A stretch of DNA of 64,000 bases, taken from assembly GCA_008632985.1 (NCBI GenBank), contig QPGO01000080.1:62001-126000 (forward strand), in the 5' to 3' direction. A program made the translations under genes and the position numbers. The stretch is from Psammoneis japonica (taxonomy: Eukaryota). Within the stretch, counting starts at the first letter, position 1, and every line of letters begins with the position of its first letter. Of this stretch, positions 266 to 63,973 are shown piece after piece. The notes under the pieces were generated by a model. It ran no database searches. It was not told where the DNA came from and saw nothing but the letters and a program-made list of their open reading frames with translations.

Positions 266-3034
266 ATGACTCCGTGGCATCCGAGTAGCGGCAACAAGAA
301 GGAGACGAAGTTGTTCAAGTTTTCCCATCATCATGTTGTCTCCATCGTATCGCACGCCATTGTGGCAGTTTGTATTCCCTTGTGGATCATCACTTGCTTT
401 TTATGCGTACTTCGTACACCATCCGTCGTTGACACAAGAATAAATGTTGACTTCGTCCACAGTCCATCAAGAACCTTGGTCAGACGGGAAGCGACGTCTA
501 TCTTTCAACAAAAGGATTCTGGTAGAAAACTCGGTACGGATGTGATAGATTCAGACGCCGTAGTTATGGTTGTCCCATTTAAGGACGAGAATGAGGCAGA
601 GAGCCTGATGAATCACTTGACGAAACTACCAAAAAGTGAAAAGAAGAATCTCCATGTCATGTTTGTTCGTGAGGTGAATTCCACAACTCCATACCTCCGA
701 TTTGCCAGGCTCATGAACATGGGGATCTCCCATGCCTCAAAAGTGTACAACCACAACAACTCGACGTGCATTGTGGCCCACGACGTGAATCTGCTACCAA
801 ATTTGGCTACGATTCAATACGGCGATAGCTGTGAGGCGCCTACGCAGCTGTGCTATGAGCAGTCATGTTATGAGGACGGCCTACCATATCCAGAGTATGC
901 AGGAGGAGTCGTGAGCGCCTCGAGGAAGGACTGGCTTCGAGTAAATGGATACACTGGATCTGCGTACGATTGGGGAGGTGAAGGAGATGACCTCTACTGG
1001 CGTTTCCGCCAAAACAATCTTCTGGACCTCACACACATTGGGGCCTCGAGTGAGTGGATGCTGAGGCAAAACGAAACGGGAAAGGGAAAGTGTGAGTGCT
1101 CTGCGAGCGCTCGCCGACCTTTTGGATCGCACTTGGATCATCACAAGATTGGGGATAGGATAAGGCGGATGTCTGTAAAGAAATCGGCAGAGTGGAAATC
1201 TGATGGACTTAACAGCCTCTCTTACGAGATTCAAACAACGGTTTCGCAGCGTCAGAATGGGATTCTATCCACCGTTTTGAACGTCGTTGAACCAGCACCT
1301 GTCGTTGATGACGGATTACAAGATCACAGAAATAACCCTGATGAAAAGCGCCAGTCTGTGGTTCTTCTTTTTGCCTATCGTGACAGAAAGGCACACTATG
1401 AACGGATGATGGAGCACATTCATCGATTGCGACAGAAAGTCCATAAGGAATTGGACTTGCATGTGTATGTCGTGGAGCAGAAGAACAGCGATCTGTTTCG
1501 AAAAGGCTGGTAAGTCCATGTAGTCTTTGTGGGTGATTCTACATTCTGGCAAGGCAGTCCATACTGTACTATTCCTTGCACGTGATTATAAAGCTCACTG
1601 CAGTATTTTTTAACGCTCTCGTGTCTCCCTATCAGGCTCCTAAATGTCGGATTTCACGAGATAGCCAAACGCTTCGATCCGAACACTACCTGCGTCGTAC
1701 AGCACGATATTGACCTTCTCCCCAATCTCGACACGGTTGACTACAGCCAGTGTGAGATTCCGACACAGATTTGCACCGAAATCCCTTGTCTTGGACGCAA
1801 ATTTCCATACCAGGGTTCTTGTGCTGGTGGTGTCGTCGCAGCTCGACTGGCTGATTGGCAACGCATCAATGGATATACTATTCAGGCATACGGCTGGGGC
1901 GCCGAGGACGATGACATTTATTTCCGCTTTCGAGCAAACTCTTTGCTTCCTGTTCCATCGAAACCAAAGAAATTCCCTCCCATGAAAAGACCTGAGGAGG
2001 ATTTCGGGTACTGCGACTGCGTTCTTGACGATGTGGATCACACTAAGAGAAAGAGACACCCGAATGTGTACAACTCCATGATGCTCAAACTGAGGCGAAT
2101 GAGGAGGAATTCCACTGAGTGGAAGCGTGATGGCTACAGCAATACGAAGTATTCGCTGGTCAAGTCTTTTCGGGATTCCCACGGAAGCTCGTGGATCCAA
2201 GCGAACTACTCGGGCGCGTCCGAGTGGTCACCATCTGTTTTGGAACTCAACCCGGATGGCCCCAAGCCTGTCATTCTGATGTCTGTTGGACGCTCTGGAT
2301 CAACTGGTATCTTCCACGCTCTCGGGAATCTCACAGGTGAGGTAATTTTTGGTGAGGAGTACGTTGGAAGAGGTCCAGCTGAGACCAGTCAGTTCTTCCA
2401 AAAGAATGAATTCAACGATGGACAATGGTTGGTGGATCACTTGGCAGAGCTTCAGAAGAAACACCCGAACGCTGGTATAGTGGGTTTTAAGTGGAAACCT
2501 TACGCGAATTCTTTATCCTTACCTGGAGCCATCCAGGCCTTGAAACGAGCTTCAAAGACAAATCCTCCCATCAAGATCATTCACTCTTATCGAAATCATC
2601 TAGATGTCATGATCTCTGAGGCCAAACATGCTGCAAGTAATCACTCGCTTAACTGGTTTTGTGCGGCTGGAGATAAAGAATGCATCAAGCAACACAAGAG
2701 TCAACATGTCAAGCTGGAAACCAAACCGCTGCTTAGGAAACTCAAAAATGAAATGAAGAGACGCAAAGACCTAGAGGACTTGCTCGCCGAGGCTGAAGCT
2801 CCCCGAATGACCACCACGTATGAGGATCTGTATTATGGAGCTGACGCATCCGCATGGATGGACCTCTTTCGTTTCATTGGTGCTGGGCCTAAGGATGGTT
2901 TGTCTATGGACCGGGTCAAGTCGGTGTTTGAATTTGCCAAGACGAGCTCCATGCAGCATAAAGAACTGCTCGAAAACTACGATGAAGTCAAGCAAGCTCT
3001 TAAAGGAACAGAATTCGAAAGTCTCCTGCACTAG
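266..3034 (+). CDS. Type II membrane protein with two tandem GT7 (beta-1,4-galactosyltransferase-like) domains and a C-terminal sulfotransferase domain; 2 exons (intron 1510-1635)
   Basis: N-terminal TM segment. Domain 1 motifs: RFARLMNMG, HDVNLLP, WGGEGDDL. Splicing GTAAGT(1510)..ATCAG(1635) gives FRKGWLLNVGF...CVVQHDIDLLP...GWGAEDDD, in frame with ORF 1943-3034. The C-terminus has a PAPS-binding-like VILMSVGRSGST plus YRNHLDVMIS and TYEDL. Confidence 0.85.
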
Positions 3035-3269
3035 CACGTGAGAAGTGTTGGGGTTCGTCCGTTGTAGTTTAGCCATTCAAAAGGTGACTTAGGTTGAACT
3101 GTGATGTTTCTCCCCTTTTATGCTGTAATGATTAGTCATTGACCGTCAGAATTGGTTGGCGACCTTCACAGCACCGCATGTTTGATGATGCGGCAATGAA
3201 CCCGCCATCTGTGTTTCGAAAACTTGGGGGCGTCGATTCGCGCATATGATCAAAATTTTTTACACGAAG

Positions 3270-6200
3270 CATCGTGCCCTTCAAGCCTTGCAAAGAGATC
3301 CCAACAACAGCCCAGCAGGTCTAAAAACGTGGGCTAAATGACCATTGCTTTCATGGACAGGTTTGAACATGAGGTTTGCTTGCCAGCTCCAAGCAAGCTG
3401 AACATTGAAGAATCGTTCAATGCTCTTGTGCAGCTCGACTCAGTGCATCGCTTCACACACACACTGGACACATCTCCTTGGCCACTCATGTGGCTCTCTC
3501 ATTGCCAGATCAATCAGCTGCAACACTGGCAGCACAGCACACTTCAAGATCAGAAAACTTAGAATCACTCCTGGAAAAGTGGGCTGCAATGCACAAGCTG
3601 TGCCATCTGCAACACAGCCCCCCCCAGTCACATGACACCCCCAGCCTCTGACACTTTCAACAATTCTGCCCCCCCCACACACACACACCCACCTTGTTCC
3701 TGTGGCAAAGTTTCTGCATCTCTAGAGTTCCCATCATGCTCAGATGGTCATTGTCAGACATTGCTTTGTAGAGCACAACTTGTGGTGTGTCCCAAGCCAG
3801 TCACAAGAATGAACAAAGGCGCTCCCTTTCTGATGTTGTCAGCACAATTTTGAAATTTGCAGAGAAAGACCCAGGCATCAGTCACCAAAGCAGAGCATCA
3901 CTTGGCTTGTGCAGATGAGCTCCAATGTTGTCCCAAAAAACTGGGTCATTGTCTCTGTGCTTTGCACCTCACTTGCCATCAAAAACCACAGCTGCCTCCT
4001 TGCCATGTTGTGTGCATCACCACCCACAAACTCTTTTGAGGAGCAGCAAGAGCTGAGCTCAGTTTGGTGCTAACAACAGTGTCCCCCAGCTGTTTGTTGC
4101 TTCTTGATGCCACATGTTGCCACTGTTGCCCCCAAAGTCTGAGCAGTCAAACACAAACTTAAGATGCCAAAGCCATTTCTCAAATGATGTGTGAGCTTGG
4201 ACACCATCATTTGCTTCATCCTGGCAATGTCCCCACTGCAAAAAAAGCACAAATGAGAGCAGCTCACCAACATCTCAGACTGAAAACAGTGTGCGCCTTG
4301 ACCCACCAGTGTTCAGAGCAGCCATTTGTTTGGAGTGCCATGTCTGGCACTCTCAGTCTCTTCAACCTCTCTTCCGCTGTCTCTGCACTTCAAGAAGCCC
4401 CTGCCTCTTGCTGAGCTGTGTGCCCTTTTGGGGCCACTGGCTTCTGGTGGGTGCTGCCAACACCTCTGCTGGGTCACCTCAGTGGCTCATGCAATGATTT
4501 GTGGCGGGTGGCAAAGAAAGGGAGCTGTGGTGTGTCATTCTAGCATGAGTTGCCAATTTCTGGGAGTGCTTGCTGATGTTCAGAAAAGTGCACACATGTG
4601 ACCAAATTTCTTGAGCAGCACATCACAGTTCTGGACATGCACCTCTTTGGAGATTGTGGCTGGACAAAGATGTGTGCTGGAATGGCAAAATGGGCAGAAT
4701 CCCATGTTGGCAGCAACTTTGATTGTGCTCTGTTGTCATGTCAGAGTCAATGCAGGACACAACCCAGATGTGCCCATTTCTGTGTTTGCTTTGCACTGAT
4801 GCCACAATGTTGCAAATGCAAAAAACAATTGGGTGCAACTCCAAAGCAGCATCACACAAATGCAATGCAGAAAAATGCACTGTGGATGAGGTGAACATTT
4901 CTGGGTCTTGCTCTTCCAGCACATGCACGTCAGCTGCTGTGGGTTGTCAAGAAAGCAAAGCAAATGTGATTGTGCAAAGCACGGATGTGCAAACTCATGT
5001 GACACCATTGGGATGGCACAGCAAAGTGGCTCATTTTCTCAATGACAATGACCCAGCGGCAATGGGAAAAAGGGCCATGAACAGTTGGGTGCATTGTGGC
5101 AGCACTTGTGGCTGATTTTTGTTTGGGGCACTTTTTTTGTCTTAAACAGCAGCAGTCTTTTTGAAAATGTGAACAAGCATGACAAGTGGGCAATGCAGTC
5201 TGTGGCATGTTAGAAAGTGCAAAAACATCATCATCTCAGCAGAATTTGGCTTGTAAAAAAAATGTCTGCTGTTTGAGCGCAGTGCTTGACTTTGAATGTG
5301 GACAAAAAAGGTTGTGTGCCAGGTCATCTGGATTTGTGCACAAAGTCATCCGTTTGGACAAAACATTGAAAATTTCAATGACAATTGCTTGGACTGACCC
5401 TGCTGGTGTGTCTCAAGTCAAGCCCTGTTGGACAAACTCCAAATGAAAGAAAGGCATGGGCGGATGTGCAACTGAGAGGTTTGCAGCAGGAGGCAGCTGA
5501 CAATGCCATCACATGTGAAAGGCAACTCAGCTTGCCTCATTGAATTGCTCACATCATTTTTTTTTAACCACAAACCCAAATTTCTGTGCACACATTTTAG
5601 GGCAAATCTGGTGTTTTGGGGGTGCCCGAAAGCATGCCTTTGACTGCAATCCACAAGCACACCCGAGGCTTTTCAACATGTGTTGTGCAGTGTGTTGATC
5701 AGTGCTCCTTTGTCACATGTGGAATTTTGCAAACCATCATTGTCCCACAGAGCATCACCTGGTGGGTCCCAGAGCTGGGGGGCATGTGTCAAAATCAAGC
5801 TTGTTGGACAGGCAGGCACTGTCCACAAAGGTCTTGTTCTCCTCAGTGCAGGGGCAGAGAACCTTTAGAGAACTTTGAGTGCAACAGTGTTGTGCACTGC
5901 TCTCCATCTCCTTCTCTGCATTTGTGACAGTTTTTTGTTTTTTCCATTGCCGAGCTTTTGAACAAGTTGTTTTGTTCTGCTGTCATCTTGACACTCTGAG
6001 CACTGCCACAACACAAGTCTCATAAAAGCAAAAAATGCTCACAAGCTCCCACTCTCAGCAGATTGACATGAGCGGCTTCCTGACAAATCTGGGCTTGGAC
6101 GTTGTTGTCCACAACTTTGTCAGCTGAAATCTTTGACAAAGGCAAAAGCTTTGTCCACACTGCTTGCTTCAAAAACATGACACAAAGTCAAGGGTGGGTG

Positions 6201-6675
6201 TGACACACTGGGGGCATGCAGGCAAACAAAAGTGGAAAAGAGCAAGCTCAGCAGACAAGCAGCAAGAAAGAAGCAGTTGTGGGCTGACATTTCTGTGGCA
6301 CTGTCATGAGAGATCTGAAAAATGGAAGGTCAGCTCCAGGTGCTGTGCACTTGTTGTGTGCAAAAGATCTGCCACACGGCCCAATTTTCATTTGGAAAAC
6401 AACAAACTCTCCTTCATTTGTTGTTCTTTCCAAAATCAAAGAGCAGTTGTGCACAAAACATTGCATTTTTCATGGGCACCTGCATTGTGATTTTGGAAAA
6501 ACCAAATTTGAAGGAGTTCAATGTGCTGAGAGCAACTCTTGGAAAACTCTGCAAGGAAAGTGGGGTGGTGTGCACACAACTTTTTTTTTTGGAGCTTGTG
6601 TTTGTTCTCTCCCTTGGCTTTGCTGACTTGTGACAAGCTTTGTTGAGTCTTGCCAAGATGAAATGCCAGTCAAAG
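3270..6675. mobile_element. Degenerate unclassified repeat/TE, left part, interrupted by the Gypsy insertion; strongly TpA- and CpG-depleted
   Basis: Abrupt shift to TG/CA-rich sequence with no credible ORF. It continues after the Gypsy element, which is flanked by an AAAG duplication. Borders are approximate. Confidence 0.6.
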
Positions 6676-7107
6676 TGCCCTGTGCATGTGCCAGGCGCTG
6701 AAAAAGAAGATGTGTTACGACTTTGTCGTTGTGAAAATTATGAGCTAGTTTAGAGTAGAGAAAGTGGGATCGTGCGAACAGGGAATCTTGCCAAATCCCC
6801 ATTCGTTCGCATTTGGATCGCATTAAATCGATCGTGCGTTCGCATTGTGGATCGTGCGAATCAAGCCATCACGCGCCATGCATGAGTGATGTCATCATGT
6901 GGAATCACGCTGCCATCGTGGGCCAGACGACGGGCTAGTGTGCTTCACACGGATGCTCTCTTAGCATCCTTCTGGATTTGCCTAAGACCTAGAGCCACGC
7001 CCTCCTGTGGTCGTGCTTCCCAGGCATGTGTCAACAACACTGCGTTGCCACGCACAAGAGGCTTGTGCACGGTCTCGCCGTGTTGTCCAGCAGCGAGGCA
7101 TGCTGCA
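6676..7107 (-). repeat. 3' LTR of Gypsy element 1
   Basis: Colinear with 11528-11959 without indels; about 21 differing sites by hand count, all transitions. Confidence 0.95.
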
Positions 7108-7129
7108 CACTCCCCCATGATCAGGGCCG

Positions 7130-10100
7130 TCAAGTGACAGGATGTCTTGCTGGTGACAGGGTGCAATCTGCCGTAGATTGTGCACATCCATCAGCACTCC
7201 GTTCTGGACACGCAACGTGCCGTTGTCATGTGCACGGACAACTCTGGCGGGTCCTGCATGGCTGTCAGAACCGCACTTAGAGGATTGTTCCTGTTTGACA
7301 AGTGCCAACTGCCCCACGGTGTGTTGATGCTCCTTGCGTTTCTGATTTTCACGCTTGTTGTTTAAGTGGGTGAGCTTCTGCTTTCTGGTTTCTATGCACT
7401 TCCACTTGGCACGATGGGCAACAGATGAAATCGCATCGCGTCCGAAGACCAATTGCACGGGGCTTGCACGCGTGGTCGTGTGCACCGCAGCTCTAGCAGC
7501 GAAGGCCACTGCCGGAGAGGATGCCACTCCATGGGTCATCTTCGTCCAGTTCCACATCCTGCACTGAAAAGGAGCGCACCATGTTGCCAAGTGTCTGGTG
7601 TGCACGTTCCACTGTGGCATTTGCCTGTGGATTCCGTTTGCTTGTGGGTTTCTTCAAAATCCCATGGTCATTTTAAATTCTGCCATAAATTCTGTCCCAC
7701 GGTCATAAACCACCTGGGTTGGCCACGGATGTCTGCACAGCCACGTTTGTTCTACGACGTTTGCTGCAATGTCTGCACGTTTCGCAGACACTTCTTTAAT
7801 CTCGAACCACCCGGTTGCTGGGTCAATCATTGTGACTGCCCACAATTGCAAGGTGTCCTTTCCGCGTCTTTGAATTTTATGTGGCCCCATCACATCTGTG
7901 CACAGAGTCTCCCATGGAATTGTCTCTGCGACCTTTTCTGGCAGCTTCCCATGATGCTGCATTCGGCGTTTTGTCTTCTGGCATCGATCGCACTTGACAC
8001 ACGTAGAATGCACCGTAGACCTCATGCTGGGCCAATGGAAGTGCTGGGCAATGGACATTTCTGCACGTGTCTCACCTGGATGACACAATGTCTCGTGGCG
8101 CCATTCAGCCAGCGGAACCTGCAATGACTGTGGCACTGCGATTTTGTCCTTATGACAGATTGACTGTCGTGATGACCCTCCCCCACGATGCGCGCGAATG
8201 GAGCAGTCGGACGAGTCCTCAGCTCTTGAGAGCAGGCGCTTGTCCTTTTGTTGTGCTTTTTGAATGCGCTTGAAGCTAACAGGCAGAGACAGCTCATCTT
8301 GAGCGTCTGCATCAAAGGCTTCATGCAAAGGACGACTCGATGGAGTGTCTTTTACATCCGGATTGGCCTCGGAAGGCAAGCTGGGTGCTGGTCGAAGGCG
8401 ACTGAGAGCGTCTGCGACCAGGTTGTGGGCACCCTCAACATGGCGTAATTCGGGACCGCATTCTTCGCATGTCAACCGCCAGCGCATGATGCGCTTGGCA
8501 TTGAATGCTTTGCACGTAAGATTTTTGTGATCAGCACACATGATCACACGATGACCAAGGAGAATCGTTCGAAATTCTTTCAACGTCTCCACAATGGCGA
8601 GCAATTCTCTCTCCGTTGTTGCGTGATTTAATTGCGCACTGTTGAGCTTTCTGCTGCAAAAGGCGACAGGTTTGTCATCTTGGGATGCAACTGCTCCCAA
8701 TTGACATTTAGAGGCATCGGCATGCACCTCAAAGGGTTTGTTAAAATCAGGATGTGATGACAAAACATCATCCGACATTGCCCGTTTAACGGTTTCGAAT
8801 GCCTCGTCTTCAACGGACGTCCACTCCCACTTAACAGTCTCGCTCACGAGTCATGTTGGCGGAGCCAAGACTTCAGAACGTCTGATCCACGTGTCGTGGC
8901 AGCAGTTCACCATGCCAACAAATGAACGCAGGTCACGTTTGTTGGTTGGGGTCGCGATTCGCTCAATGGCGTTGACTTCATTGGGCATTGGTCGCATTCC
9001 GTCTCTGTCAACCAGATGACCCAAGTGCTCTAACTGGGTTTGACAGAAGTGAGATTTAGTTGCGTTGACTTTTAGTCCTGCTTTCTGGACCCTCAACAAG
9101 ACTTCTTCAAGTTTGTTGAGGTGATCTTCACAGGTGCCTTTCATCACGACGAGAAGGTCATCTAAGTGCGTTCGAACGAACGACAGATCTTCAAATGAGC
9201 CTGACATGCGTTCTTGGAAAATGTCTGGCGAGTTGCATGATCCCATGGGCAACACCTGCATCTCACACTTGCCCCACGGGAAGATGAGCGTGCAGAGCTT
9301 CTTGCTGTCAGCATCCAATCGGATGTGACAACAGCCCATGTTTAAATCCAGCGATGCAGCCCACACAAAGCCTTCGAGCTTGAGCAGCACATCTTGGACA
9401 TGAGGAATCGGACAAGGCAATCGCTTGATCCGTTTATTCAGCTCTCTGAAATCATTAATAAAGCGCACCGTTAAATCTTTCTTCGGTGTGATAAATGATG
9501 GAGCTGCCCATTGGGATCGGTTAACGCGTTTGAGAACACCGACGCACTAGGCGTTCTACTTCTTTACGTAGCGTAGCTTCGTACGCACGAGGTACTTTAT
9601 ACGGACGAGCGTGGCATGGTTCTACACCCTCCTTGAGTTGGATATGGTAGGGTTCTCCCTTCCATTCTCCTAATGTCCCATCAAATAAGGACTCATGGCG
9701 TTTCAATAGTGCCAAAAGGTCGTTTTGTTGAACTATAGAAAGTTCTATTGCCTCTCGCGTTATGTCCCCGAGGCAGGCCGGCGCGTGCTTAGCGTCTAAA
9801 ATACGCGAAATCCGGTCGGTTTCCGAAGATAAGGCTTCTGGATCTTGAAGATAGAAGGAGGTTTCCACCGTAGCATCTACGTGCCTCATTGGTACTTCTC
9901 CATTGACTAATGGCCACTCTATCATCTGTTTAGAGAAGACAACATCAATGCCTTGTGTCTCCAGAATGTCACGTCCAATAATCATATCGTACTTGCCCAA
10001 CTTTCCGTTGTGTACGTGGACGGTATGCTTAAGTTCTGCAGTTTCGGATAATTCTGGTAACCAAAATTTAACGGTACAGTCGTTAGACGTACTAAACGAG

Positions 10101-10390
10101 CCTGCTACCGTAGTCCAGTTTGTCTCAGCCGTTGAATGGCTTCGCAGACGTTTACAGTATCGACTATCGAGTAGAGTACTGCTGGCGCCACTATCTAGTA
10201 GTGCCTTAATGGTTTGAGTCTTGCCCTTGCCATGTTTAGTATTCATAGCTATAAACAAGATTGGAGTAAGATGAGTCTTTTTAACTCGTTTACGGGATTG
10301 GCCTACAACACGTGTACGATGGTAATTCAGTTGTTCATTTATACATTCATCTAATGTATTAAAACTACCTGTATCGTGTCGGCCCTCTTC
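7130..10390 (-). pseudogene. pol: Gypsy pol (protease, reverse transcriptase, RNase H, integrase), broken by frameshifts, a stop and hypermutation
   Basis: Protease ALLDSGAS and YDMIIGRD. RT LDLNMG, LPMG and VRTHLDD. RNase H DAS, ERELLAIV, DHKNL and VADALSRL. Integrase H..LCHPG..C..C, D and DRGTEF. The 3' end is approximate. Confidence 0.92.
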
Positions 10391-11466
10391 TCAGGCGTCC
10401 GAATCTTCGGAATCACTTAAGTTGAGGTCGCGGAAGTGATTAAGCTCCTCCTCGCGGGCCTTACGCTTTTTCTGAGCGTTGGCAAAGTACTCCTCGACCT
10501 TCGATCCGATGAGAGCATTAACATCTTCCTCATTCCGAGGTTTTGTATTAGGCTTGCCGCTTCCGTTATTGGAATGTCCAGTCTTGACACGTTTCACGTG
10601 GTGCTTGAGCTGACGGCAATCTTCCGCATCATGTCCACAGTTAGTCCCGTGCAGCATGCACGACTTCTGGGTGTTCCGCTGGGTCGTGATCAACGACTCA
10701 GGATTGTCCATTCTACGTCCCGCTTACGTGGAACCTTAGCATGTTGGTCCTGGTTACCTTCGGCAAGCTCGACCTGCTCGATGCGCTCGCAGAACTGCAC
10801 AAATTCGGCGATGGCATGCGCCAACGGGTCAAAATTTTGTAGCGTCATGAACTTCTGCCATGCGTTCGGCACACCGCACTCGAACACATCGCATGGTTCG
10901 TCATTGGGTGATGGTGCCGGTGTTTCTCCATCCTCCGTCACGGGTGGAAACTGAGAGATGTGGCCGTTAATTTCAACAGCCCTCGCGACGCAGTCACGAG
11001 TGGAAACCTCTGCCGGCTTGCGCATGAAGCGCCGCAGATGACGCTTCTGCAATGGTGCCGCCCCATTTGGGAAGATGCTTTTCTTTAGCTTCGTGATGCA
11101 TGCTGCGTGCGCAGCGTTGGTTTGGGATGCCTGCTTGTCAGCAGCATTGTCAAATGACGTCAGAGCATCGCCCTGCAGTGAGTCACGCATGAGGGCAAAT
11201 TTCGCTGGCCCGGTCGTGATGTTTTGTCCTTCGTGCACGCGATCCACGTTGCGTAGAAAGATTGGGAGTGTCTCGCATGTAGCCGCAGAAAGGTGCGGGA
11301 TGCCCATCTCGTGCGTTGGACCATCCGGATCAGCAGGGTTGTTGCGCAACTTGAGCGTCTGGCACTCGCCCTGCTGCAGCTCTTTCTTCTCCGGCCGTGC
11401 GAACGGAGTCGGCGGCTTGGTCCGCTTCTTCATGGTCGTTTTGAGATTTGTCGGTCCTGCCAACAT
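10391..11466 (-). pseudogene. gag: Gypsy gag with a frameshift near 10700
   Basis: Sits directly after the 5' LTR. Contains QKRHLRRFMRKP and a C-terminal CMLHG..H..EDC knuckle-like motif. Confidence 0.75.
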
Positions 11467-11527
11467 TTTGTAGTTTCGTTTCTGTAGATTTCGTTACCTC
11501 GCACAATGTGCGGGAGCAATGTCACTG

Positions 11528-11959
11528 TGCCCCATGCATGCACTGGGCGCTGAAAAAGAAGATGTGTTGCGACTTTGTCGTTGTGAAAATTGTGAGCTAG
11601 TTTAGAGTGGAGAAAGTGGGATCGTGCGAACAGGGAATCTTGCCAAATCCCTGTTCGTTCGCATTTGGATCGCATTAAATCGATCGTGCGTTCGCATTGT
11701 GGATCGTGCGAATCAAGCCATCACGCGCCATGCACGAGTGATGTCATCGTGTGGAATCACGCTGCCATCATGGGCCAGACGACGGGCCAGTGTGCTTCAC
11801 ACGGATGCTCTCTTAGCATCCTTCTGGATTTGCCTGAGACCCAGAGCCACGCCCTCCTGTGGTCGTGCTTCCCAGGTGCGTGTTAACAGCGCTACGTTGC
11901 CACGTGCAAGAGGCTCATGCACGGTCTCGCCGTGTTGTCCAGCAGCGAGGCATGCTGCA
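11528..11959 (-). repeat. 5' LTR of Gypsy element 1
   Basis: 432-bp direct repeat of 6676-7107. Confidence 0.95.
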
Positions 11960-13375
11960 AAAGAGGCAGCTCTTAAAGTGTTGATGCCAGGTTTGCCTGG
12001 AAAGTGCTCCTCAATCTTTGCTTTCTGTTTTTGTGTCACTTTGGCACTCAAGATGCCTGCATTGCTGGTGTTGACACTTTCCCAGGGACACCACAACAAG
12101 CGCCAGCACATGCCAAAGCTGCCTGTCAAAGCTGCACAGGTGCAACAAGATTCCCAAGCAAACAACCATGAGTTGTCTTTGCAACAACTCTTTTTTCCCT
12201 GCAGCTGGATCAAGCAAAAATTTCTGACAGCTCACAAGGGAGCTCCTCTCCCAAATGTGAAAAAAGCAGCCCTGCAACACACTTTCCGTGCCCTTCAGTT
12301 GGCTTGTGTGTTCTGCCTCTTTGTGGTGCTCACTTTGTTTTTGCTGCAAAGAATGAGGGAGCACCACAAATCAGACAAAGAGCAAATTGTAGTTTCTCTC
12401 AAAGCTTTTCACCCAAGAATGAGAGAACACAGCAGGCTGAAAAATGACAGCCACATGCTTTGGCACCTGGGTGGCTTGCACGCCGCAACCAGGTCTGACC
12501 AACAAAGAGTTTTGCACTCTGGCTGACAAAGTCAACAACAGCTTTGTCTCTTTGCCCAGAGTGGTGCAACCAAGCAAACAACAAGCCACACTTGTTGCAC
12601 ACTTGCAGCAACCATGCTGGAGGGCAGGCCAAGGTGGCAAAATCAAGGTTCCACAAAAAAAAACAGCAAGAAGCGCTCCAGCTTCTTCTTGCCCAACTCA
12701 GCATGTCCAATGAGGCCAGCCAGCCATGTTTGTTGTCTGCTTGCATTGCATGGCAGCTGCACCAATGCCAGGAAACTGCAATCTCAAAATGGGTGAGCGG
12801 CAAGGCAGTCTTGCTGTTGGGAGCTCCAGCCAACAGCGCGCAATGCACACACAATTCAAGAGCCTGCAGCTGCACATGGGCGCTGACAACACATCTGCAC
12901 TCCACAAGCTGAGCATCTGTGAGTGATGATGCAACCCTCTGTCTGGCTCTCCCAAGTTGGCTTGGCACACTTTCTGTTGTGACAAAGAAAAACCTTTGCA
13001 CGCTGGGGCAACGTGCTCAAAACTTTTTTGTGCATTGACCAGAACAACAAATGCCAAAAAAGTTTAAAAGTGCAAGCTCTGGCAGGTGATGACAAAAACA
13101 TCCAGTGCTTGAATTTGTGCAGAAAAATGGTGTTCACTGGCCTGAAATGCTGTTTTGATTTTTTTCTTTGTGGCGATGGCTTGGCAGTCACCAGCAGAGC
13201 ACCAGCTCACAGCCAAAGTTGGCAACGCCAAGTTTTGTCTCTCTGTGTTGCTGAGGTGCTTGCCATGAAGCTCAAGATGCCAAGCACTGGTGGCTGTCAC
13301 CCACAAATGCAAAATTGGTTGCTGTGTGAGAGCACGAAGTGACACATGCTGTGTGCCGTGGATCTTGCACTCTTT
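11960..13375. mobile_element. Degenerate unclassified repeat/TE, right part of the sequence interrupted by Gypsy element 1
   Basis: Same TpA/CpG-depleted composition as 3270-6675. Normal TpA content resumes at about 13378. Confidence 0.6.
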
Positions 13376-13655
13376 GCTACAGCAGCTGGCCGCCATTGTT
13401 TACGACCGTTTCCATCGAAACCAAAAACCAAAATGCCATGCCAGCCGGTGTCACTCAAGCCTGAGATTTTACACCATGCATGTTCCAACATACGACTATG
13501 AAGAATAAATTTAAATTAGGGGCTTATTTCTTAACCCAATGGGAAGTCATTGTCGAAAGTCACAGAGAACACTAAATAATCGTGAGCCAGCTAAAATTCA
13601 TTTATTTTTTGGAGCAAATGCAGATTGTGCTCTCATTTCGTGCTGTCTGTTAACC

Positions 13656-16600
13656 ATGAGTCCGATCCAAGGTCTTTCCCTCCTGTTACTTTTTGCAGTC
13701 CGACCGCATGATGTCCTGGGGAGCGATTGTGAGAAACAATACGGCAAAGACATACGAGTGTGTGAAGAAAGTAGGAGAGATTCGGAGTGCACATTTTTCA
13801 TGAAGTTACGGGGTGAGAGCTGCAATCAGTTTTGTGAGAGACAAGGTGGGACATGCCTCTATGCTAATCCCAATAGTAGTGAGCCATGCAAAACTTATGG
13901 AACCAACGATTGTGATGCCGGCTTCTTCGACAACATCTGCACGTGCTCGATATACAGTAACCCTCCTCCGAGACCACCACGTCCATCGACGATTTGCACC
14001 AAGAAATTTAGTGATGATATTCTGATTTGTGACGAGCAAGATTCGCACTGTATTTTTTATGTTGAGTTGGGTGGCACAAGCTGCCGAGAGTATTGTCGCC
14101 GGCGAGGTGAATCATGTGCTAAAACAAGGATCAGCGACGGAGACTACACTTGCATGAATGTTGGAGAAACGGCCTGCGACGAAGTATTTGACAGAGCCAT
14201 TTGCGAGTGTTCGCTGGATGAGACTGATCTCACACCACGACCCACCAGTGAACCGACTCACCAACCGTCACCAGAACCTACTTCATTGCCATGCCGAGAA
14301 AAATACGGAAGAGATGTTCTTGTCTGCGACGAGAATGAATCTGAATGCACCTTTTATGTCGAACTACAAGGGGATAGCTGTGACGAATATTGCGAGGCGC
14401 GTGCAGGAACATGTTTGTCAGCTAAAGCAAATATGGGCGTGGAAAGAACGTGTACCAGCTACGGAACCAACGTCTGTGAGGCCAAGTTTTTTGACAACAT
14501 TTGTACATGTTCCATGGGTAGTGATCCGCCACCAAGACCTCCGACTATGCCGACACCGTGTAGCAACAAATTCGGGGAGGATGTACTCATATGTGACGAG
14601 CAGACTGAAGAGTGTATCTTTTATGCTGAATTGAGTGGCTTGAGCTGCCGAGAGTATTGTGGCCGGCGAGGTGAATCTTGTGTAAGGACAAGGATTAGCG
14701 ACGGCGAAAATACTTGTATGAATGTTGGCGAAACTTCTTGCGACGATATCTTTGACAGAGCAATTTGCCAGTGTACGCTACTGCAAAACAATCCGGTTCC
14801 TACATCACGGCCAAGCAAGGATCCAACGCGACAGCCCACTCGATTTCCAACGCCGAACCCATCCAAATCTCCGACACCACTTCCGACAAGACCCCCAACA
14901 CCGTTACCCACCGCCAATCCAACGCTATCGCCTACTAAAGCGCCAACTGTCCCACCAACAGAGACACCATCTCTGAAGCCATCGCCAAGACCAACATCGG
15001 GACCGACATCTATTCCTACAACAGCCCCAACTAAGTCATCAACTTTGCTACCAACAAGAGCTACGTCAGTACCAACAGCCAAGCCAAGTGCAGAGCCCAC
15101 TAAACCTCCAACAGCCAGCCCAACGGAGACTCCAACGCCGCCACCATCGCCTGATCTGACAAAGCGCCCTACTTCTTTTCCGACTTCTGCACCGACAAAG
15201 TCTCCCACCATCCAACCAACGGTTTCAGGACCAACAACTCCAGAATTCGATGATCGCCTATGTGGCAAATGTGATCGCAACGGATGCTTCTCTAGTGTCA
15301 ATCCCGAAAACGAACAAAAGTGCTTGAAATTTGATTGCTTCAACCGAATAGACTGTCCTGAATATGTTTCCACGTCTGATCCACCAAATGAGTGGGAAGA
15401 ACCTCCGCTAGATCCGTTACCCCCTGAACCCGGCGAGTTTGAGGAAAAGCGAAAAACTGGCCAGGTCTGTCTGATCAATGAACATTGTGAGTCAAACGTT
15501 TGTCGAAATTTTGCTTGCATGGCTTCTGCGGCGTGTTACCCAATCAAGCACAAAAAGGCATCTCCCTTTGACGCCAACAAGATAAACATTGTGTTTGTTG
15601 GCTCTGCCTTTAACAATCACGAAGCATTTCGATCGAAAGCTATTGAGGCATACAACAAAATGAAGGAGCACAAAATGTTTGCTGCGAGCAACGAGAATCT
15701 CAATGTGTTTCTTGTGGATCCTGTCGAGTTGGACCCTTCTTTTTGCGTGTTCAATTGCGCAGGGGTAGAGAGGTTGCTTTGCTGCAATGTCGTCAAGGCT
15801 CAAAAATTGTCGAGCCATTGTTTGCCCGAGGGAGCCAACTTGCAAACTATTGTGATACATAATGACTCGAAATACGGCGGCGGCGGATACACGAGCCAAA
15901 ACCTGGCAACCATGTCGACTCATCCATTGGGTTCTCAAGTGGTGATTCATGAATTAGGTCACTCGCTCTTTGAGCTCGGAGACGAATATTCGTACGGATC
16001 GGGAGCAAACAACGACCCCAACTGCGATGAAGCAGAAGACTGTTCAAAGTGGGCTGACTTGATTGATCGGACACCCCCAGGATATCCTCCGGTCAAGTGT
16101 ATACCTGGATGCCGCAACAACAACTTCTTTGTTTCGGGCGTCACGTACATGAATGTGCTGAATGAACAAGTGGGTGCCGTGAATGATCGCTTTACATGCT
16201 GTACCTATCAAGCTCTCACGAAAAGCATGCCACCCTATTGTCGGGCATTTGATTTTGAGAAAGACTACCTGCTAAACTATTGTTTGAGCAACGATTTCCA
16301 AAACTACGGGCGTTCAAACTACGGGAACAACCCGAAACTCCTAATTACAACTGGCATGGTCCGCAAAGACAAGTCCAAGTATGTTCATGTGTCGGATCCA
16401 ATGCTGGTGGACATTCAATTGAACTACAAAAGACGCGGCCGATTCGCTGTTGCAGATCCCGTCGTCGGTCCATCGGGATTGTACCGAAAAGAACGAGTCG
16501 TTGGCAACTTCAAAAGGCTTGCTCAAGCTGCTGCGGCGGGCTTTGAGAAGGCAGTTCAAGTCAAGGTGACGTATGCCACCAAGGGTAGAGAACGTTTCTT

Positions 16601-16781
16601 CTTCTCGACGAATACAACTATTGAGGTTCCATCGATAGCTGAGAGCTATTCAACCACTGGCGCAAATGATGATGACCTGCAGCAAAGGTCAGAGGAGGCT
16701 CAAGTAATAAACTTAGTCCTTAACGCGCAAGGAAGACGAATAAAGAATATTCGCGCCAAGATAGTTTCCACTGGAATATAG
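13656..16781 (+). CDS. Secreted M64-like (IgA peptidase family) zinc metallopeptidase with duplicated Cys-rich N-terminal modules and a Pro/Thr-rich stalk
   Basis: Signal peptide from Met 13656 (MSPIQGLSLLLLFAV). Two similar ~190-aa Cys-rich units, then PT-rich repeats. Peptidase motifs INIVFVG, YGGGG and HELGHSLFELGDEY (HExxH...DEY). Confidence 0.8.
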   Translation: MSPIQGLSLLLLFAVRPHDVLGSDCEKQYGKDIRVCEESRRDSECTFFMKLRGESCNQFCERQGGTCLYANPNSSEPCKTYGTNDCDAGFFDNICTCSIYSNPPPRPPRPSTICTKKFSDDILICDEQDSHCIFYVELGGTSCREYCRRRGESCAKTRISDGDYTCMNVGETACDEVFDRAICECSLDETDLTPRPTSEPTHQPSPEPTSLPCREKYGRDVLVCDENESECTFYVELQGDSCDEYCEARAGTCLSAKANMGVERTCTSYGTNVCEAKFFDNICTCSMGSDPPPRPPTMPTPCSNKFGEDVLICDEQTEECIFYAELSGLSCREYCGRRGESCVRTRISDGENTCMNVGETSCDDIFDRAICQCTLLQNNPVPTSRPSKDPTRQPTRFPTPNPSKSPTPLPTRPPTPLPTANPTLSPTKAPTVPPTETPSLKPSPRPTSGPTSIPTTAPTKSSTLLPTRATSVPTAKPSAEPTKPPTASPTETPTPPPSPDLTKRPTSFPTSAPTKSPTIQPTVSGPTTPEFDDRLCGKCDRNGCFSSVNPENEQKCLKFDCFNRIDCPEYVSTSDPPNEWEEPPLDPLPPEPGEFEEKRKTGQVCLINEHCESNVCRNFACMASAACYPIKHKKASPFDANKINIVFVGSAFNNHEAFRSKAIEAYNKMKEHKMFAASNENLNVFLVDPVELDPSFCVFNCAGVERLLCCNVVKAQKLSSHCLPEGANLQTIVIHNDSKYGGGGYTSQNLATMSTHPLGSQVVIHELGHSLFELGDEYSYGSGANNDPNCDEAEDCSKWADLIDRTPPGYPPVKCIPGCRNNNFFVSGVTYMNVLNEQVGAVNDRFTCCTYQALTKSMPPYCRAFDFEKDYLLNYCLSNDFQNYGRSNYGNNPKLLITTGMVRKDKSKYVHVSDPMLVDIQLNYKRRGRFAVADPVVGPSGLYRKERVVGNFKRLAQAAAAGFEKAVQVKVTYATKGRERFFFSTNTTIEVPSIAESYSTTGANDDDLQQRSEEAQVINLVLNAQGRRIKNIRAKIVSTGI

Positions 16782-48457: not shown

Positions 48458-48509
<52 letters not shown>

Positions 48510-58908: not shown

Positions 58909-59310
58909 TGCACTGTGCTCGAAGAACGAGCACAAACGAAAGTAGAACCAAGCATGAAAAGTGAAAATTGTGAGGTTGAATTTTGCTCTGTGATTTTTGG
59001 TTTCTCCGAATGAGTTCTCAATGGCCTAAAGCTTCTGCACTGCTTCTGCAGACAAAAGGCCTTTCGGAGAATGCATTCGCGACAACAGATTGTCCGGGTG
59101 CGATTGCCATTGACACGTGAGATGTCAACATCGTCAATCAATCGCACTTGCAATTTTTGACATCCGATCAACTCTGTGTGATCGTTCTGTCCTTTGCACG
59201 CATCCACGACTGTGGCGCGATTGACACACAAACAACACACAATTCTGAACATGTGTGCAACAGTCGCATGCTGCACCTGTGCAATTTTCACCGTGGGGAA
59301 GCACTGAGTC
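58909..59310 (-). repeat. 3' LTR of element 2, missing ~20 terminal bp; TpA-converted
   Basis: Colinear with 63552-63953 at offset 4643. Confidence 0.9.
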
Positions 59311-62300
59311 GATTTCCGAATGTCTTTTGAGAGTGACATTGTTTGTTTCTCACTTGACATGTGTGCATGGCATTGCGTCGAGTGTTCTCATTGACGTTCT
59401 TTGTTGATGTGAGCGCCAGGACCAATTGTCCCGCAGTGTCTTTCATTGTGTCGATTGCACACAGCATTGTGCCCAGCACTTGGTGTGCACTCTTTTAATT
59501 GCCATGGCATTCACTTTTACTTGCTTGTGGATTTCGTGTAGTTCTGGCTGGCTTCACATGCCATGTTGCTCTGCTGCACTTCCACGCATCGTAAGCAATT
59601 GACGATGTTCAAGAATGTTTTCTAACCATTTCGTCTTGGACAATCCTGGGATGGTTGTGAATTCCTTCATGGATTTTTTTGCACTTCAACCATCCATCAG
59701 TTGGATTTTAATCGTCATTTGGACATTTCTTTTTGACATGCCGGTGTCATTTTGTCATTCCGAAGGCACTTCTTTCGTGCACTGTGTGGACAAATGTCCA
59801 TTTTTGTGTTTTATTTCTGAATCTTTGGCACATCTCGTGTGACATTGTTTGTGTCTTGCCTCGCACATCGTACGTTGCAATCGTGCGGGTGCTGTGAGAT
59901 TGTTTTTTGCCAGTGTGAAGTGGATGCTGCAATGTCGTGCACCAGTCTGTCACAGAGTTTTTTTTCCAACCATCCTTTGACAAGGCAGTTTTGTCCTTGT
60001 GGCATGAGCATTTTTCGATTTTCGATCTCCCTCGCCTCCACGAAAAGTGTTCGTGTGACATGTCGCGTCCGACAAGTTGGAGGGAAATGTCTTCATCCCG
60101 TTTTAACGGCAGGACATTGTCGCAGGATTGAATTTTCTGTGGCAAGTCGGCTGATCGCGTCTGTTGCGACGATGTTCGCCTTGCCCTCGACGCATTTTAA
60201 TGCGGGGCTGAAGTTTTCCATTGTAAGTCGTCAATGCATGACCTTGTCCGTTGTGTCTTACAATCCGTGTGTGTGTGAATCTGTTGGCCAAACAGCACAT
60301 TTTGGAATTTTACAAGTGTTTTCGCCATGGCAGAAGTTCTTTTTTCCGTTGCAATGCATGATGTTGAAATGTCATGTGTGACAACAACACAGTTTGTGAT
60401 TTGATGCGCTCCATGTTTTCGGAGACTTTTCATTCTGTACTTGTCGTTTTGCCGTTTGACCCTTGTTGAGGTGGATTTGGCTGGAAGTGTGCAGGAGACG
60501 CGTTCCAGACGCAGGTGGGAATCCGTGTGACATTGGGCCCGCAGAATTCTACGTGCGAGCTCTGCATTAAAATTGTCAGGTAATTAAAATGTCAATGTTC
60601 GCCAACAGAAAATGAGGCAATTTTGCGAACGCACAAACTCGTCCATGATTGAAGAACATCATTTGTCACTTGGCTGGGTGCATTCTTCAGACATTGAAGA
60701 ATGCAACTGGCGCATTGTTGTTTCCACAAATTTGTCATGTAAAACGTCTGGGGCTTCGCAAAACAGCGAGTCTGGACAATTTTTTTGAAATGTTGCACGT
60801 AGAAATGCCGCACGAAACATGCGACGGATGATAAAAATTTTTTGTGTCACACGTCAGCACTGCGAGCTCCCACCTGGGGCTGGAACGCGTCAGGAGATCA
60901 TTGAGAGTGCATGTCTCGACAGCACCAACATGTGGCGACGAGATGTCGCAGTGTTCTTTGCGTTTTTCTCGTGTTGCGATTGCTTGAATCACCTCCATTT
61001 TCTTTGCAATCAATTTCACATCGTTGTGTGTGGAAGTCTTGACAATTTATTTCAAGTCAAATGGTGAAGAACCTTTGTTGTTGACCTTCCAAGTGACTGT
61101 TCCAGTCGTTTGAATGCCGTGCTGAGCTGTCACTTGTGCAGGTGACATTTTGAAGTCACTTTTTGTCGGGCACAAATGATCATTTGCAGTCGTTCTGACA
61201 ACTTCAAACCTGCCATGAGTTCGCTCATGTGTGGCACAAAAATGTCTGGGGCTCTGTGGCTTCTCGTTGGAAGTCCACAGTGCTCATTTTTTTCCCACGA
61301 CATGATTTTCGTGTGAGCACGACGTGTGCTTTTTTTATTTGACATGGTGGCACTCCACATTTGAATCAAATAGATTGCATGTGTGAAACGTTCTTGCTTC
61401 AACAGCATTTCCTGAACATTGGGCAAAGGACACACCACGTGTGCGAACCTTTTGCCAAGCTTCTGAGTGTCGGGCGCGGTCAACTCGACCTGTTTTCTTT
61501 GGACAATGAGTCTCAGAGCGACTCATTCAGAGCAGCTTCATTTTTAAGACTTCAATCTTTCACAACAGGTCAAATTCCTTTTAATTGGACGCCTCCAAAG
61601 GCCATGATGGGAGAAGGTTCTCACGCGTCGTGGAATCGCGTCAGATTTTCCACGATGAGATCCACTGGTTCTTCCCATGCATTCGTCTGAGGAACTTTTC
61701 AAAAAGATTTCAACCTCTTAAGAAGAAGATTGAGTTGGTTGTGTTCATTTGGGTTAGATGCATCGCCGTAGTTGTCACTTGATTAGGATCGATGGCGTGT
61801 TAATGTGAGTCGAGGACCATTGGTTCCGTTGTTAACTCTATTCACGGCATCATATTTTTCAATGTGATCGGTTTTCAGCTTGAAAACATCGGCATCGAAG
61901 AGGGTATGAACATTCTTCATAGGGTAATTGCTTCTTCCCATTTGATTTCTTCAATTACGTAGTCTAATATGATTACAAGACTGGACATTAAGTCGCGTCC
62001 CATGATCACATTAGTCGACCTTCAAGAAGATTTCGTGTTATCGACATATACTGTTTGAATATCAGTATGTCTTAAATTTGCATAGTGAGAACTGAATTCG
62101 GTTTCTACTATCAGTCGTAAAGAGCTCACCCTTGGTTTCCCAAGTTTTTTGGTGGCGGATATTTGGTTCTCAACTTTGCACGATTTGCGTAAAATCATGG
62201 GTGACGATGTTCTTTATCGAGAGAACACGTAGAAGCTTATTTTTTGCTTTTCTCAGAGAAGTAGTCATATAGACGGCGAGAATAGAACTCGTATAACATA

Positions 62301-63551
62301 CTATGATGTTTTTTCTGGGTTTCCAGACGTCCTGTAACGCTGTATACTCCTCGATCGGTGTAAATTTTTGATCGGACTCGATCGGGTCAATTTTTCTAAA
62401 TTGATAGTTTCATTCTCTAAGTGTTTTAGAGTCGTAATTTTCGCTCTTATTTTTTCGCTCCTTTGCTGAGGAACTCATTTTAATTTTTTTGTGAACTACC
62501 CAGTTCATTATGGGGTTCAATTCCTCTTTCACAGAGGTATTTCCTGCTATCGCCACGCCGCGTGCGATTGCTGTTAGAGTGTCATATTTTTGGGTCTCTT
62601 TTAGAGCCACCCTTGCACTCTTTTGCTAGTTCATTTTCAGAATAGCTTTAATCCGTGATGTAGGTATTCTTTTTTCAAAGATTGGACCTTGCATTCACTT
62701 TGGATTGTTCAGGTACCATATAGGAGACCATTTTGGGAACCAAATTTGGAACCTTTTTTATTTTGGAACCAACTGCGCTATCAGAGCCTGAGTTGATATG
62801 TTTTTTCGTCATGGACGTCATGAACGACCTCTTGACTACTCAAACCTCAATCAGCTCGTCAAGGGTATGATCCAGTAGTTCAATATTTTGGACAGTAGGC
62901 TGATGCTGCCATCCTTGCGGTGCGAGTGATAGCTGATAGCTCACGGCTCGGTTTCCCGCTAGATTCAACTTAGAATCGATTGAAGGGTCGTATAGAGACT
63001 CTTCATTGACCTCTTGGGTCGAATAGGCACTCTCTTGCTGCTGAGAGCCTTTGGTTTCTTCAGATCATCTCGAAAAAAATAATTCTGATTCTGAAGTGCA
63101 ATTCCTGGAAAGACATGAGATAAGAGACTCTTGACGTACTTTCCAATGGTTCCTTCTTGCTCTTTGGACTCGAGACTCGTCGATTCGGTCTGAAAAACTC
63201 TCCAATAGTCTCTCCTTGCAAAGTAAATGTATTTCTCGGATCTGATCGACTCGGGACTTGCATTCTCTGCAACCATGACTTGGTGTAGATTTTTTGATAA
63301 TGCGGTGTACTTGTAGAGTCCTTGATCCTTGGATGCTTGGAATAGACCGTATTAGAACGAATCTTGTCATTTGCTAGACGAAAAACAGCGTTCCATCTTG
63401 AGGTACTGCTCGGATTGAGCTCCTTCCGCTCGGAAATCGATTCTAGCATAACTGATGCGATTCGTCCCTGTTTATAGAAGAATTTACAAAGGCACATTAG
63501 TTAAAATTTTCATTTTCCGTGCTTTTTACCTTCTGTGGTGTGTATACACAA

Positions 63552-63973
63552 TGCACCATGCTCGAAGAACGAGTATAAACGAAAGTAGAATCAAGTATGA
63601 AAAGTGAAAATTATGAGATTAAATTTTACTCTGTGATTTTTGGTTTCTCCGAACGAGTTCTCAATGGCCTAAAGCTTCTATACTGCTTCTACAGACAAAA
63701 GGCCTTTCGGAGAATATATTCGTGACAACAGATTGTCCGGATACGATTGCCATTGACACGTAAGATGTCAACATCGTCAATCGATCGTATTTGCAATTTT
63801 CGACATCCGATCAACTCTGTGTGATCGTTCTGTCCTTTGTACGCATCCACGACTGTGGTACGATTGACATATAAATAACATATAATTCTGAATATGTGTG
63901 TAACAGTCGCATGCTGCACCTGTGCAATTTTCACCGTGGGGAAGCACTGAGTCACGAGTGGGCGGGACTGACA
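63552..63973 (-). repeat. 5' LTR of element 2; mostly TpA-intact
   Basis: Begins TGTCAGTCCC on the minus strand and ends ...TGCA. Confidence 0.9.

Follow-up and report, generated by a model that had tools for sequence, protein, structure and literature searches.

The locus examined here raises the question of how a retrotransposon can lose almost every tyrosine from its gag and pol reading frames, in which direction the responsible mutations ran, and whether they harmed the element. It lies in contig QPGO01000080.1 of Psammoneis japonica (GenBank assembly GCA_008632985.1), of which we analyzed a stretch of 64,000 nucleotides, positions 62,001 to 126,000 of the forward strand. This whole stretch is called the window, and coordinates refer to it. 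Positions 6669-11959 hold a degenerate Ty3/Gypsy long terminal repeat (LTR) retrotransposon on the minus strand. A sequence-only reading of this DNA had proposed that mutation at TpA, on both strands, replaced the tyrosine codons and damaged the element. We conclude that this copy, which is dead, was very probably struck after its integration by a hypermutation process that converts TpA to CpA or TpG, that is, A:T to G:C on either strand.

The element is recognizable as Ty3/Gypsy by its flanking LTRs and by the order gag, RVP, RVT_1, RT_RNaseH_2/RT_RNaseH and Integrase_H2C2. With open reading frames (ORFs) taken from stop to stop and domains assigned with Pfam, its parts are the following.

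6669..7107, minus strand: 3′ LTR of 439 bp, with 93.2% identity to 11521-11959 over 439 bp.
6982..7653, minus strand: degenerate integrase C-terminal frame that extends into the LTR; 0 Tyr in 223 amino acids (aa).
7654..8850, minus strand: RNase H and integrase zinc-domain ORF (RT_RNaseH_2, RT_RNaseH, Integrase_H2C2); 1 Tyr in 398 aa.
8851..9546, minus strand: reverse transcriptase ORF (Pfam RVT_1, 2.8e-18); 0 Tyr in 231 aa, with YxDD reading HLDD.
9521..10390, minus strand: protease ORF (Pfam RVP), within an unmutated patch; 73 TA over 870 nt, and seven of its 289 aa are Tyr.
10690..11493, minus strand: gag ORF; 11 TA over 804 nt, and the only Tyr among its 267 aa precedes the first Met.
11521..11959, minus strand: 5′ LTR, placed by comparison of the LTR pair.

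We consider this copy dead because its protease (PR) and reverse transcriptase (RT) frames are offset, two in-frame TGA codons interrupt the RT, RNase H (RH) and integrase (IN) region, part of the integrase is deleted, and the rve core domain is undetected. The frame offset stems from a small indel near 9541-9546, where some other copies, in contigs of run X1, carry two extra bases. The TGA codons end the RT ORF (8851-8853) and the RH/IN ORF (7654-7656); they are the only in-frame stops within RT-RH-IN, and the second adjoins the stretch of integrase that is deleted relative to related elements. Pfam detected no rve core domain in the element, although it is present in relatives. Neither the gag ORF nor the integrase C-terminal frame, to which the corresponding part of the relatives aligns only with indels, has a Pfam match.

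The near-absence of Tyr noted in the sequence-only reading was confirmed by recounting the RT, RH/IN and gag frames; the 258-aa gag product that starts from 11466 contains none. We measured this loss against intact relatives. A protein-collection search returned 1432 relatives at E ≤ 1e-10, the best of them 63% identical. The best 120 are intact pol proteins, mostly about 900-1100 aa long and 53-63% identical to the element, and their Tyr content is 2.9-4.8%. At the relatives' 3.83%, the probability of finding one Tyr or fewer in 630 aa is 5e-10. For the analysis of alignment columns, the best 60 relatives were aligned with the pieces of the element, and results were used from RT-RH-IN and PR only. 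In RT-RH-IN, 24 columns have Tyr in at least half of the 60 relatives. At these columns, the element reads Cys 11 times, His nine times, and Trp, Met, Phe and Arg once each; none of them retains Tyr. In the same columns Tyr fills 1244 of the 1440 cells of the 60 relatives, with His in 27 and Cys in two, and each relative carries 17-24 Tyr. His and Cys are thus not natural at these positions in relatives, no one of which has more than two of them taken together. The direction TA to CA or TG, which had been read from general Gypsy pol motifs, is borne out by conserved Tyr columns that read His or Cys in the element and not in its intact relatives.

All the individual changes named in the sequence-only reading (Tyr to His or Cys, Leu to Ser or Pro, Thr to Ala) were recovered column by column against the 60 relatives.

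YxDD to HLDD: column Tyr in 100%.
MGYYH to MGCCH: both columns Tyr in 100%.
GKYE to GKCE: column Tyr in 93%.
EYLGY to EHLGH: columns Tyr in 100% and 93%.
VNYY to VNCC: columns Tyr in 95% and 100%.
AFYSRKL to AFCSRKL: column Tyr in 87%.
YPDF to HPDF: column Tyr in 70%.
MGLxN to MGSCN: column Leu in 100%; the codon in the element is TCA.
LAPLT to LAPPT: column Leu in 100%; the codon in the element is CCA.
HTDAS to HADAS: column Thr in 98%; preceded by T.
YTDHKNL to CADHKNL: confirmed against the 60 relatives.

The loss extends beyond Tyr in a pattern set by the genetic code. Among RT-RH-IN columns conserved in at least 80% of relatives, the element retains 0 of 17 Tyr, 8 of 16 Thr, 14 of 26 Ile, 10 of 15 Val and 17 of 24 Lys, and 100% of Gly, Pro, Cys, His, Ser and Ala. 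The poorly retained residues are exactly those that have TA-containing codons or can follow a T-ending codon. Tallying the single-step replacements in RT-RH-IN gave 44 of TA type (25 TA to TG and 19 TA to CA) against seven of CpG type, so that substitutions are enriched at ancestral TpA, as had been expected. The two outcomes at Tyr columns, nine His and 11 Cys, place the changes on both strands if a single chemistry is at work.

The mutations also damaged the proteins, as had been claimed: the catalytic YxDD reads HLDD, and the RT, RNase H and integrase zinc domains score 10-35 bits below five intact relatives in Pfam. RVT_1 scores 63.9 bits in the element versus 88.8-99.4 in the relatives, RT_RNaseH 88.8 versus 110-114, and Integrase_H2C2 41.3 versus 51-64.

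TA is not depleted uniformly along the window. Observed/expected (o/e) ratios and the positions of TA delimit two tracts in the Gypsy element and a set of more heavily converted blocks outside it; none is assigned to a strand.

6669..9480: TA-depleted tract 1, with CpG kept; TA o/e 0.10-0.49 per 250 bp, CG about 0.5-1.2.
10750..11959: TA-depleted tract 2, with a graded edge at 10372-10755, from TA o/e and TA positions.
3200..6600: older flanking block; TA and CG o/e 0.02-0.15, TG/CA doubled.
12000..13200: older block on the other side of the Gypsy element; TA and CG almost gone, TG/CA doubled.
33200-36300 and 49200-55300: further old blocks of the same kind, with TA and CG depletion.

Over most of the Gypsy element, TA o/e per 250 bp is 0.09-0.49. 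Tract 1 has a sharp edge, at about 9435-9522 by TA positions. Between the two tracts lies the protease patch, in which TA o/e is 0.91-1.34 per 250 bp from 9501 to 10500. The patch retains four of its seven conserved Tyr in the alignment with the 60 relatives and thus serves as an internal control within the element. It may be a consequence of how tracts are set, or of later conversion from an unmutated copy. CpG is near expectation all along the Gypsy element. In the old blocks, CG o/e is 0.05-0.15, the level of advanced CpG decay. These blocks resemble foreign or mobile DNA of old age whose conversion is complete; the four together comprise about 14 kb of complex, non-repetitive sequence, and the Gypsy element is nested in one of them.

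Base composition changed as conversion by transitions predicts. Across tracts and blocks, TA o/e is 0.02-0.3 and TG/CA o/e is 1.4-2.1, and the sum of TA, CG, TG and CA per kb is 240 in genic DNA versus 242 in fully depleted blocks, a constancy that matches the prediction. GC content rises from 0.42 in the unmutated parts of the transposable elements (TEs) to 0.495 in the tracts, as TA per kb falls from 64 to 12. Per kb of strand, unmutated TE parts have 29.4 TAA plus TAG, tracts 9.0 and old blocks 3.4, and TGA stays at 20-23 throughout. The process removes TAA and TAG and is unable to create stop codons, so that long frames abound there in all six reading frames. Elsewhere in this one 64-kb window, 13 large ORFs keep their RTAY sites (R, purine; Y, pyrimidine) and most have 3-4.8% Tyr; two LTR elements are affected.

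The second affected element allows the timing of the mutations to be read twice.

58909..63953, unstranded: second LTR element, without recognizable pol; LTRs 58909-59310 and 63552-63953, 91.5% identical.

It is possibly non-autonomous; its ORFs have no Pfam match. Both LTRs of a new retroviral-type insertion are copied from the same template and are identical at integration. Differences between the LTRs of one element therefore arose in the chromosome, after integration and on DNA. The LTRs of the Gypsy element (6669-7107 and 11521-11959) differ at 30 sites, of which 28 are transitions and 27 fall at pyrimidine-purine (YR) steps, namely TA, TG, CA or CG. TA is opposed to TG or CA at eight of these sites, TG to CA at seven, and five involve CG; the two LTRs both keep another four TA and 28 CG. 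Where TG faces CA, both copies appear to have been altered, each in a different way.

The LTRs of the second element are more one-sided. They differ at 34 sites, all transitions and 30 of them at YR steps, and five sites involve CpG. At 22 sites the copy at 63552 has TA where the copy at 58909 has CA (14) or TG (8); the reverse occurs at none. Altogether, 26 differences read as A:T to G:C in the depleted copy. The four non-YR differences are three of ATC to ACC and one of ATT to ACT if polarized alike. The depleted tract of this element runs from about 58320 to 61720: it begins about 590 bp outside the LTR, covers that LTR and the adjoining 2.8 kb, and ends inside the element. These comparisons show that the process can nearly saturate one LTR of 400 bp and leave its twin of equal age untouched.

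The surviving TA dinucleotides reveal a wider sequence context. Within the tracts they are mostly TTAA, CTAA/TTAG and CTAC/GTAG, and ATAT, ATAC/GTAT, ATAG/CTAT and GTAC are almost gone. Counts of RTAY, YTAR and all TA are 463, 226 and 1515 in genic DNA and 60, 42 and 205 in unmutated TE parts; they are 2, 45 and 91 in tracts and 2, 38 and 55 in old blocks. Among 66 events with an inferred ancestor, 29 occurred where both half-sites were favorable (a purine before and a pyrimidine after TA), 32 where one was, and five where neither was. These data show a graded preference, RTAY over mixed sites over YTAR and TTAA. Tyr was wiped out because its codons, TAY, are this preferred context read in frame. 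At positions with a single favorable half-site, 22 TAY became TGY and 10 became CAY, which is only suggestive of a preference for which base of TAY changes.

Other copies carry the same signature. Run X1 contains 0.55 of the sampled 31-mers of the element. Its contigs, aligned to the element at 80% likeness, yielded 5965 pieces; counting an alternative letter at 10% of depth or more, 399 places are variable, with A to G at 115, T to C at 114, C to T at 83, G to A at 76 and transversions at 11. At the best-supported 40 of these places, CA or TG in the window is opposed to CG in 13 and to TA in eight, TA in the window is opposed to TG or CA in three, and 16 have other contexts.

Metagenome contigs, scanned with an alignment of 21 proteins, gave 75 loci of relatives. 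Most have TA o/e of 0.6-1.0, and three (L048, L045 and L059) have 0.26-0.34. At positions that are Tyr in the intact relative P0001, L048 reads Tyr once, His 10 times and Cys 12 times among 36; L059 reads Tyr twice, His nine and Cys six times among 22; and L045 reads Tyr twice, and His and Cys six times each, among 18. Further loci (L049, L058 and L052) have at least five Cys at such positions, seven partly depleted ones (L009, L032, L043, L044, L051, L053 and L056) have three or fewer, and the other 62 have two or fewer. RTAY versus YTAR counts are 0/36 in L048, 0/18 in L059 and 3/43 in L045, compared with 83/75 in L040. These loci extend the process, recognized by its signature, to one or more further Gypsy families.

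Seventeen of the 75 loci form one family with 82-92% DNA identity, in which we counted sites occupied by a YR step in every copy. TA, TG and CA all occur at 62 sites, TA and TG at 37, TA and CA at 30, and TG and CA only at 11; TA is invariant at 12. The corresponding patterns with CG are 39, 36 and 16 (91 variable) with four invariant, so that hypervariability in this family is as marked at CpG as at TA. The fraction of TA lost rises with the number of favorable half-sites, being 0.13, 0.33 and 0.51 for none, one and two. Fourteen copies have each lost 0.17-0.39 of their TA and the other three 0.63-0.75; CpG loss per copy is 0.30-0.47 and does not track TA loss (r = -0.28 over the 17 copies). 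Loss of TA is therefore independent of CpG decay, and it is not clock-like.

So far one preprint, from 2026, has described the process behind these changes. It studied 15 mutation-accumulation lines of Bigelowiella natans and reports 302 single-nucleotide mutations in the nuclear genome, of which 231 lay in viral DNA integrated at two places, one a giant-virus insertion and the other a virophage. Of these, 230 changed A to G or T to C, every one of them at TpA, at a rate of about 6e-7 per site per generation, elevated about 1000-fold, in some lines only. An indirect hint of a high rate here is that 22 TA sites changed in one LTR of the second element and none in its twin. The same preprint reports 124 clusters of TpA-depleted, CpA+TpG-enriched 1-kb windows in that genome and an enrichment of reverse-transcriptase and DDE Pfam families among TpA-depleted coding sequences, and its authors propose DNA adenine deamination by an ADAT2-like enzyme as a defense (10.64898/2026.01.13.699255). 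In the respects that the preprint covers, the two systems share A:T to G:C transitions confined to TpA and yielding TpG or CpA, kb-scale TpA-depleted clusters, an episodic rather than clock-like course, reverse-transcriptase coding sequences among the depleted ones, and perhaps foreign or mobile DNA as target. They differ in that the target here is an LTR retrotransposon and the evidence is comparative, from LTR pairs and relatives, rather than de novo. Here, too, the changes are almost wholly transitions (34 of 34 in the second LTR pair, 388 versus 11 transversions in other copies), a minority of them of CpG type. By its matching signature, the process in this window may well be the one measured de novo in B. 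natans.

We infer that it is an active, targeted defense against foreign or mobile DNA and that its chemistry is adenine deamination on DNA. Changes at TAY codons, where the preferred motif is read in frame, replace Tyr by His or Cys; ATA, TTA, CTA and GTA codons and T|A codon junctions are targets as well. The element is disabled by missense changes, YxDD to HLDD among them, as TAA and TAG vanish and frames stay open. A separate and slower decay of CpG to TpG or CpA adds to the damage and, in older blocks, removes CpG too. Three observations favor an episodic and active process: the contrast within the second LTR pair, TA loss that is uncorrelated with CpG loss, and the bursts reported in the preprint.

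Among the alternatives, the one that survives best, which we judge unlikely, is that TpA is lost passively, as the side effect of a base modification that is mutagenic and is placed on TpA in silenced chromatin, for example through mispairing of 5-hydroxymethyluracil (5hmU) or 5-formyluracil with G, much as 5-methylcytosine (5mC) decays. Equal orientations and the lack of strand runs described below are what independent events at a palindromic, symmetrically marked site would give, CpG decay occurs in the same blocks, and the window encodes a dcm-type C5 methyltransferase. In dinoflagellates, 5hmU is reported to replace T preferentially in TA and TC, to be enriched in repeats and to mark TEs, with a link to their silencing (PMC11572971, PMC11071213). 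The non-YR differences of the second LTR pair, three ATC to ACC and one ATT to ACT if polarized alike, would also suit such a modification. The available text of these sources mentions no mutational signature, however, and dinoflagellate gene arrays are described there as unidirectional, whereas the genes of the window lie on both strands. Against it stands the extreme contrast in rate between LTRs of equal age, with 22 TA sites lost in one and none in its twin. Only five sites of that pair involve CpG, TA and CpG loss are uncorrelated over the 17 metagenome copies, and the bursts in B. natans were limited to a subset of lines (10.64898/2026.01.13.699255). CpG decay through 5mC itself resembles the present process in that both converge on TG/CA, and CG to TG or CA changes occur among the LTR differences and are nearly complete in the older blocks; it accounts for a minority of the element's changes (7 versus 44 in RT-RH-IN).

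Editing of the retrotransposon's RNA or cDNA before integration, by enzymes of the ADAR or APOBEC type, would have been inherited at insertion. It has in its favor that the ADAR preference for a 5′ U matches TA and that hyperedited stretches are clustered, and APOBEC3 (G to A) and ADAR (A to G) resemble the process studied here in disabling retroelements through clustered transitions of deaminase type. The substrate of these enzymes is cDNA or RNA; they alter one strand only, and the LTRs of an insertion stay alike. Here, LTRs that were copied from one template differ at YR steps (27 of 30 and 30 of 34 differences), all 22 TA changes of the second pair lie in one LTR, and coding-strand A to G and T to C changes are about equal (25 versus 19); an RT with HLDD would, moreover, be unable to copy itself. 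The LTR comparisons exclude pre-integration editing as the main source, and we regard it as highly improbable.

An equally improbable explanation is an artifact of assembly or base-calling, in which a long-read assembly would show transitions wherever modified bases of heterochromatin had been called wrongly. Sharp domain edges, near-complete conversion and random choice of strand would fit such an error. Against it, run X1 contains 0.55 of the element's 31-mers, although nearly every 31-mer of a tract would span a changed site, and it supports the window's own letter at a residual depth of about 40-126 at many places. The same signature is found in metagenome contigs from several records, and its recurrence in independent assemblies makes an assembly artifact unlikely; the B. 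natans mutations were measured de novo with Illumina reads (10.64898/2026.01.13.699255).

Least credible of all is a reversed polarity, in which fungal-type repeat-induced point mutation (RIP), the best-known repeat-directed transition process and likewise one at a YR dinucleotide, made the TA-rich patch from CA/TG, or in which the family naturally lacks Tyr and TA: Tyr is conserved in relatives (2.9-4.8% in the 120), and the element keeps it in the TA-rich patch alone; TA o/e in the TA-rich parts is ordinary (0.91-1.34); and the tracts gain GC instead of losing it. TAA and TAG also drop, from 29.4 per kb of strand to 9.0 in tracts and 3.4 in old blocks. RIP shares with the present process DNA-level, dinucleotide-specific transitions in mobile or repeated DNA, on both strands, after integration and to the point of saturating tracts. 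It converts C:G to T:A at CpA, so that TpA goes up, GC goes down and stops are created (CAA, CAG and TGG becoming TAA, TAG and TGA), whereas here TA falls, GC rises and TAA and TAG are erased, and the Tyr to His/Cys changes fix the direction. RIP also requires duplicated sequence and enzymes of the RID/DIM-2 type; the cytosine methyltransferase ORF present in the window is of the dcm type.

Several points weigh against our interpretation, or against parts of it. The 44 events in the element show no same-orientation runs (z = 0.13), nor does the 17-copy family (pooled z = -0.2), which does not favor a processive single-strand deaminase; the absence of strand runs fits independent events at double-stranded palindromic sites better. 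Lost sites are not clustered within copies of that family either (pooled z = +1.4), unlike the sharp tracts of the window. For the TG-versus-CA sites in the LTRs, CG is a conceivable ancestor in place of TA. The protease patch could reflect later gene conversion, as its edge coincides with a small indel. A TE or viral origin of the old blocks is unsupported: they have no recognizable coding content, and none of 51 ORFs (those of at least 110 aa in the old blocks, plus those of the second LTR element) has a Pfam match. Ancestral states were drawn from relatives at 53-63% identity, two LTR pairs and summary tables of other copies; identity with the system of the preprint would be recognized by signature only; and the read technology of the assembly and the platform of run X1 are not on record.

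Hypermutation of TpA after integration, as set out above, adds to what has been described. A literature search for TpA-directed mutation of repeats found, besides the preprint, only fungal RIP and unrelated work. The terms tyrosine, LTR, Gypsy, CpG and stop codon do not occur in the main text of the preprint, and no motif beyond TpA itself appears in its abstract, Results or Discussion, although the supplements might hold one (10.64898/2026.01.13.699255). What is new here is the erasure of Tyr, the proof from LTRs that LTR elements are mutated after integration and in tracts, the preference for RTAY, the two-stage pattern with CpG decay and the occurrence in environmental samples. The element serves as a natural experiment in which conserved Tyr turned to His or Cys fixes the direction, and it gives evidence for retrotransposons as targets. 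RTAY preferred, with YTAR and TTAA spared, is a motif that any candidate enzyme must reproduce. Genes are killed through loss of Tyr without stops, and the long six-frame ORFs of dead elements can mislead gene callers. The metagenome signature suggests that the process is not confined to one culture. More tentatively, and at somewhat less than an even chance, a TpA editor may be a general, conserved genome defense of some protists: one that acts on LTR elements after integration in discrete kb-scale tracts, at roughly RTAY on double-stranded DNA and on each strand independently, disables proteins through loss of Tyr with frames left open, runs beside CpG methylation decay and independently of it, and is active in uncultured eukaryotes. 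If so, such an enzyme would be a natural A:T to G:C editor of double-stranded DNA, of interest to the base-editing field.

Other features of the window lie apart from the two elements. Scans of the window yielded no Rfam match and no tRNA. An intron-less, stand-alone ORF at 31921-33090 on the minus strand encodes the dcm-type C5 cytosine DNA methyltransferase (DNA_methylase, 1.5e-44; TIGR00675, 130.9 bits) and directly adjoins a CpG-depleted block. Long intron-less ORFs occur on both strands at 230-3034, 13515-16781, 20572-22778, 28284-31052 and 38187-48879. They include a GT7 galactosyltransferase-like protein, a GT90-FkbM methyltransferase fusion, a DEAH-type helicase, a flavin monooxygenase, and PI-PLC-like and VIT-VWA proteins; TA o/e in this run is about 0.5, and Tyr content is mostly normal. 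Its make-up recalls integrated giant-virus DNA, with no viral hallmark gene seen among these ORFs. A giant-virus context known from ichthyosporeans was considered for comparison and set aside; the available part of its source mentions no TpA mutational signature. The helicase is split between overlapping minus-strand frames (20572-21792 and 21684-22778) that carry its C-terminal and HA2 domains, which suggests a frameshift or an intron. Finally, arrays with a 12-base period at 24745-25325 and 26817-26977 (17 and 24 copies, at least 60% identity) stand within long open frames and probably represent a coding tetrapeptide repeat.

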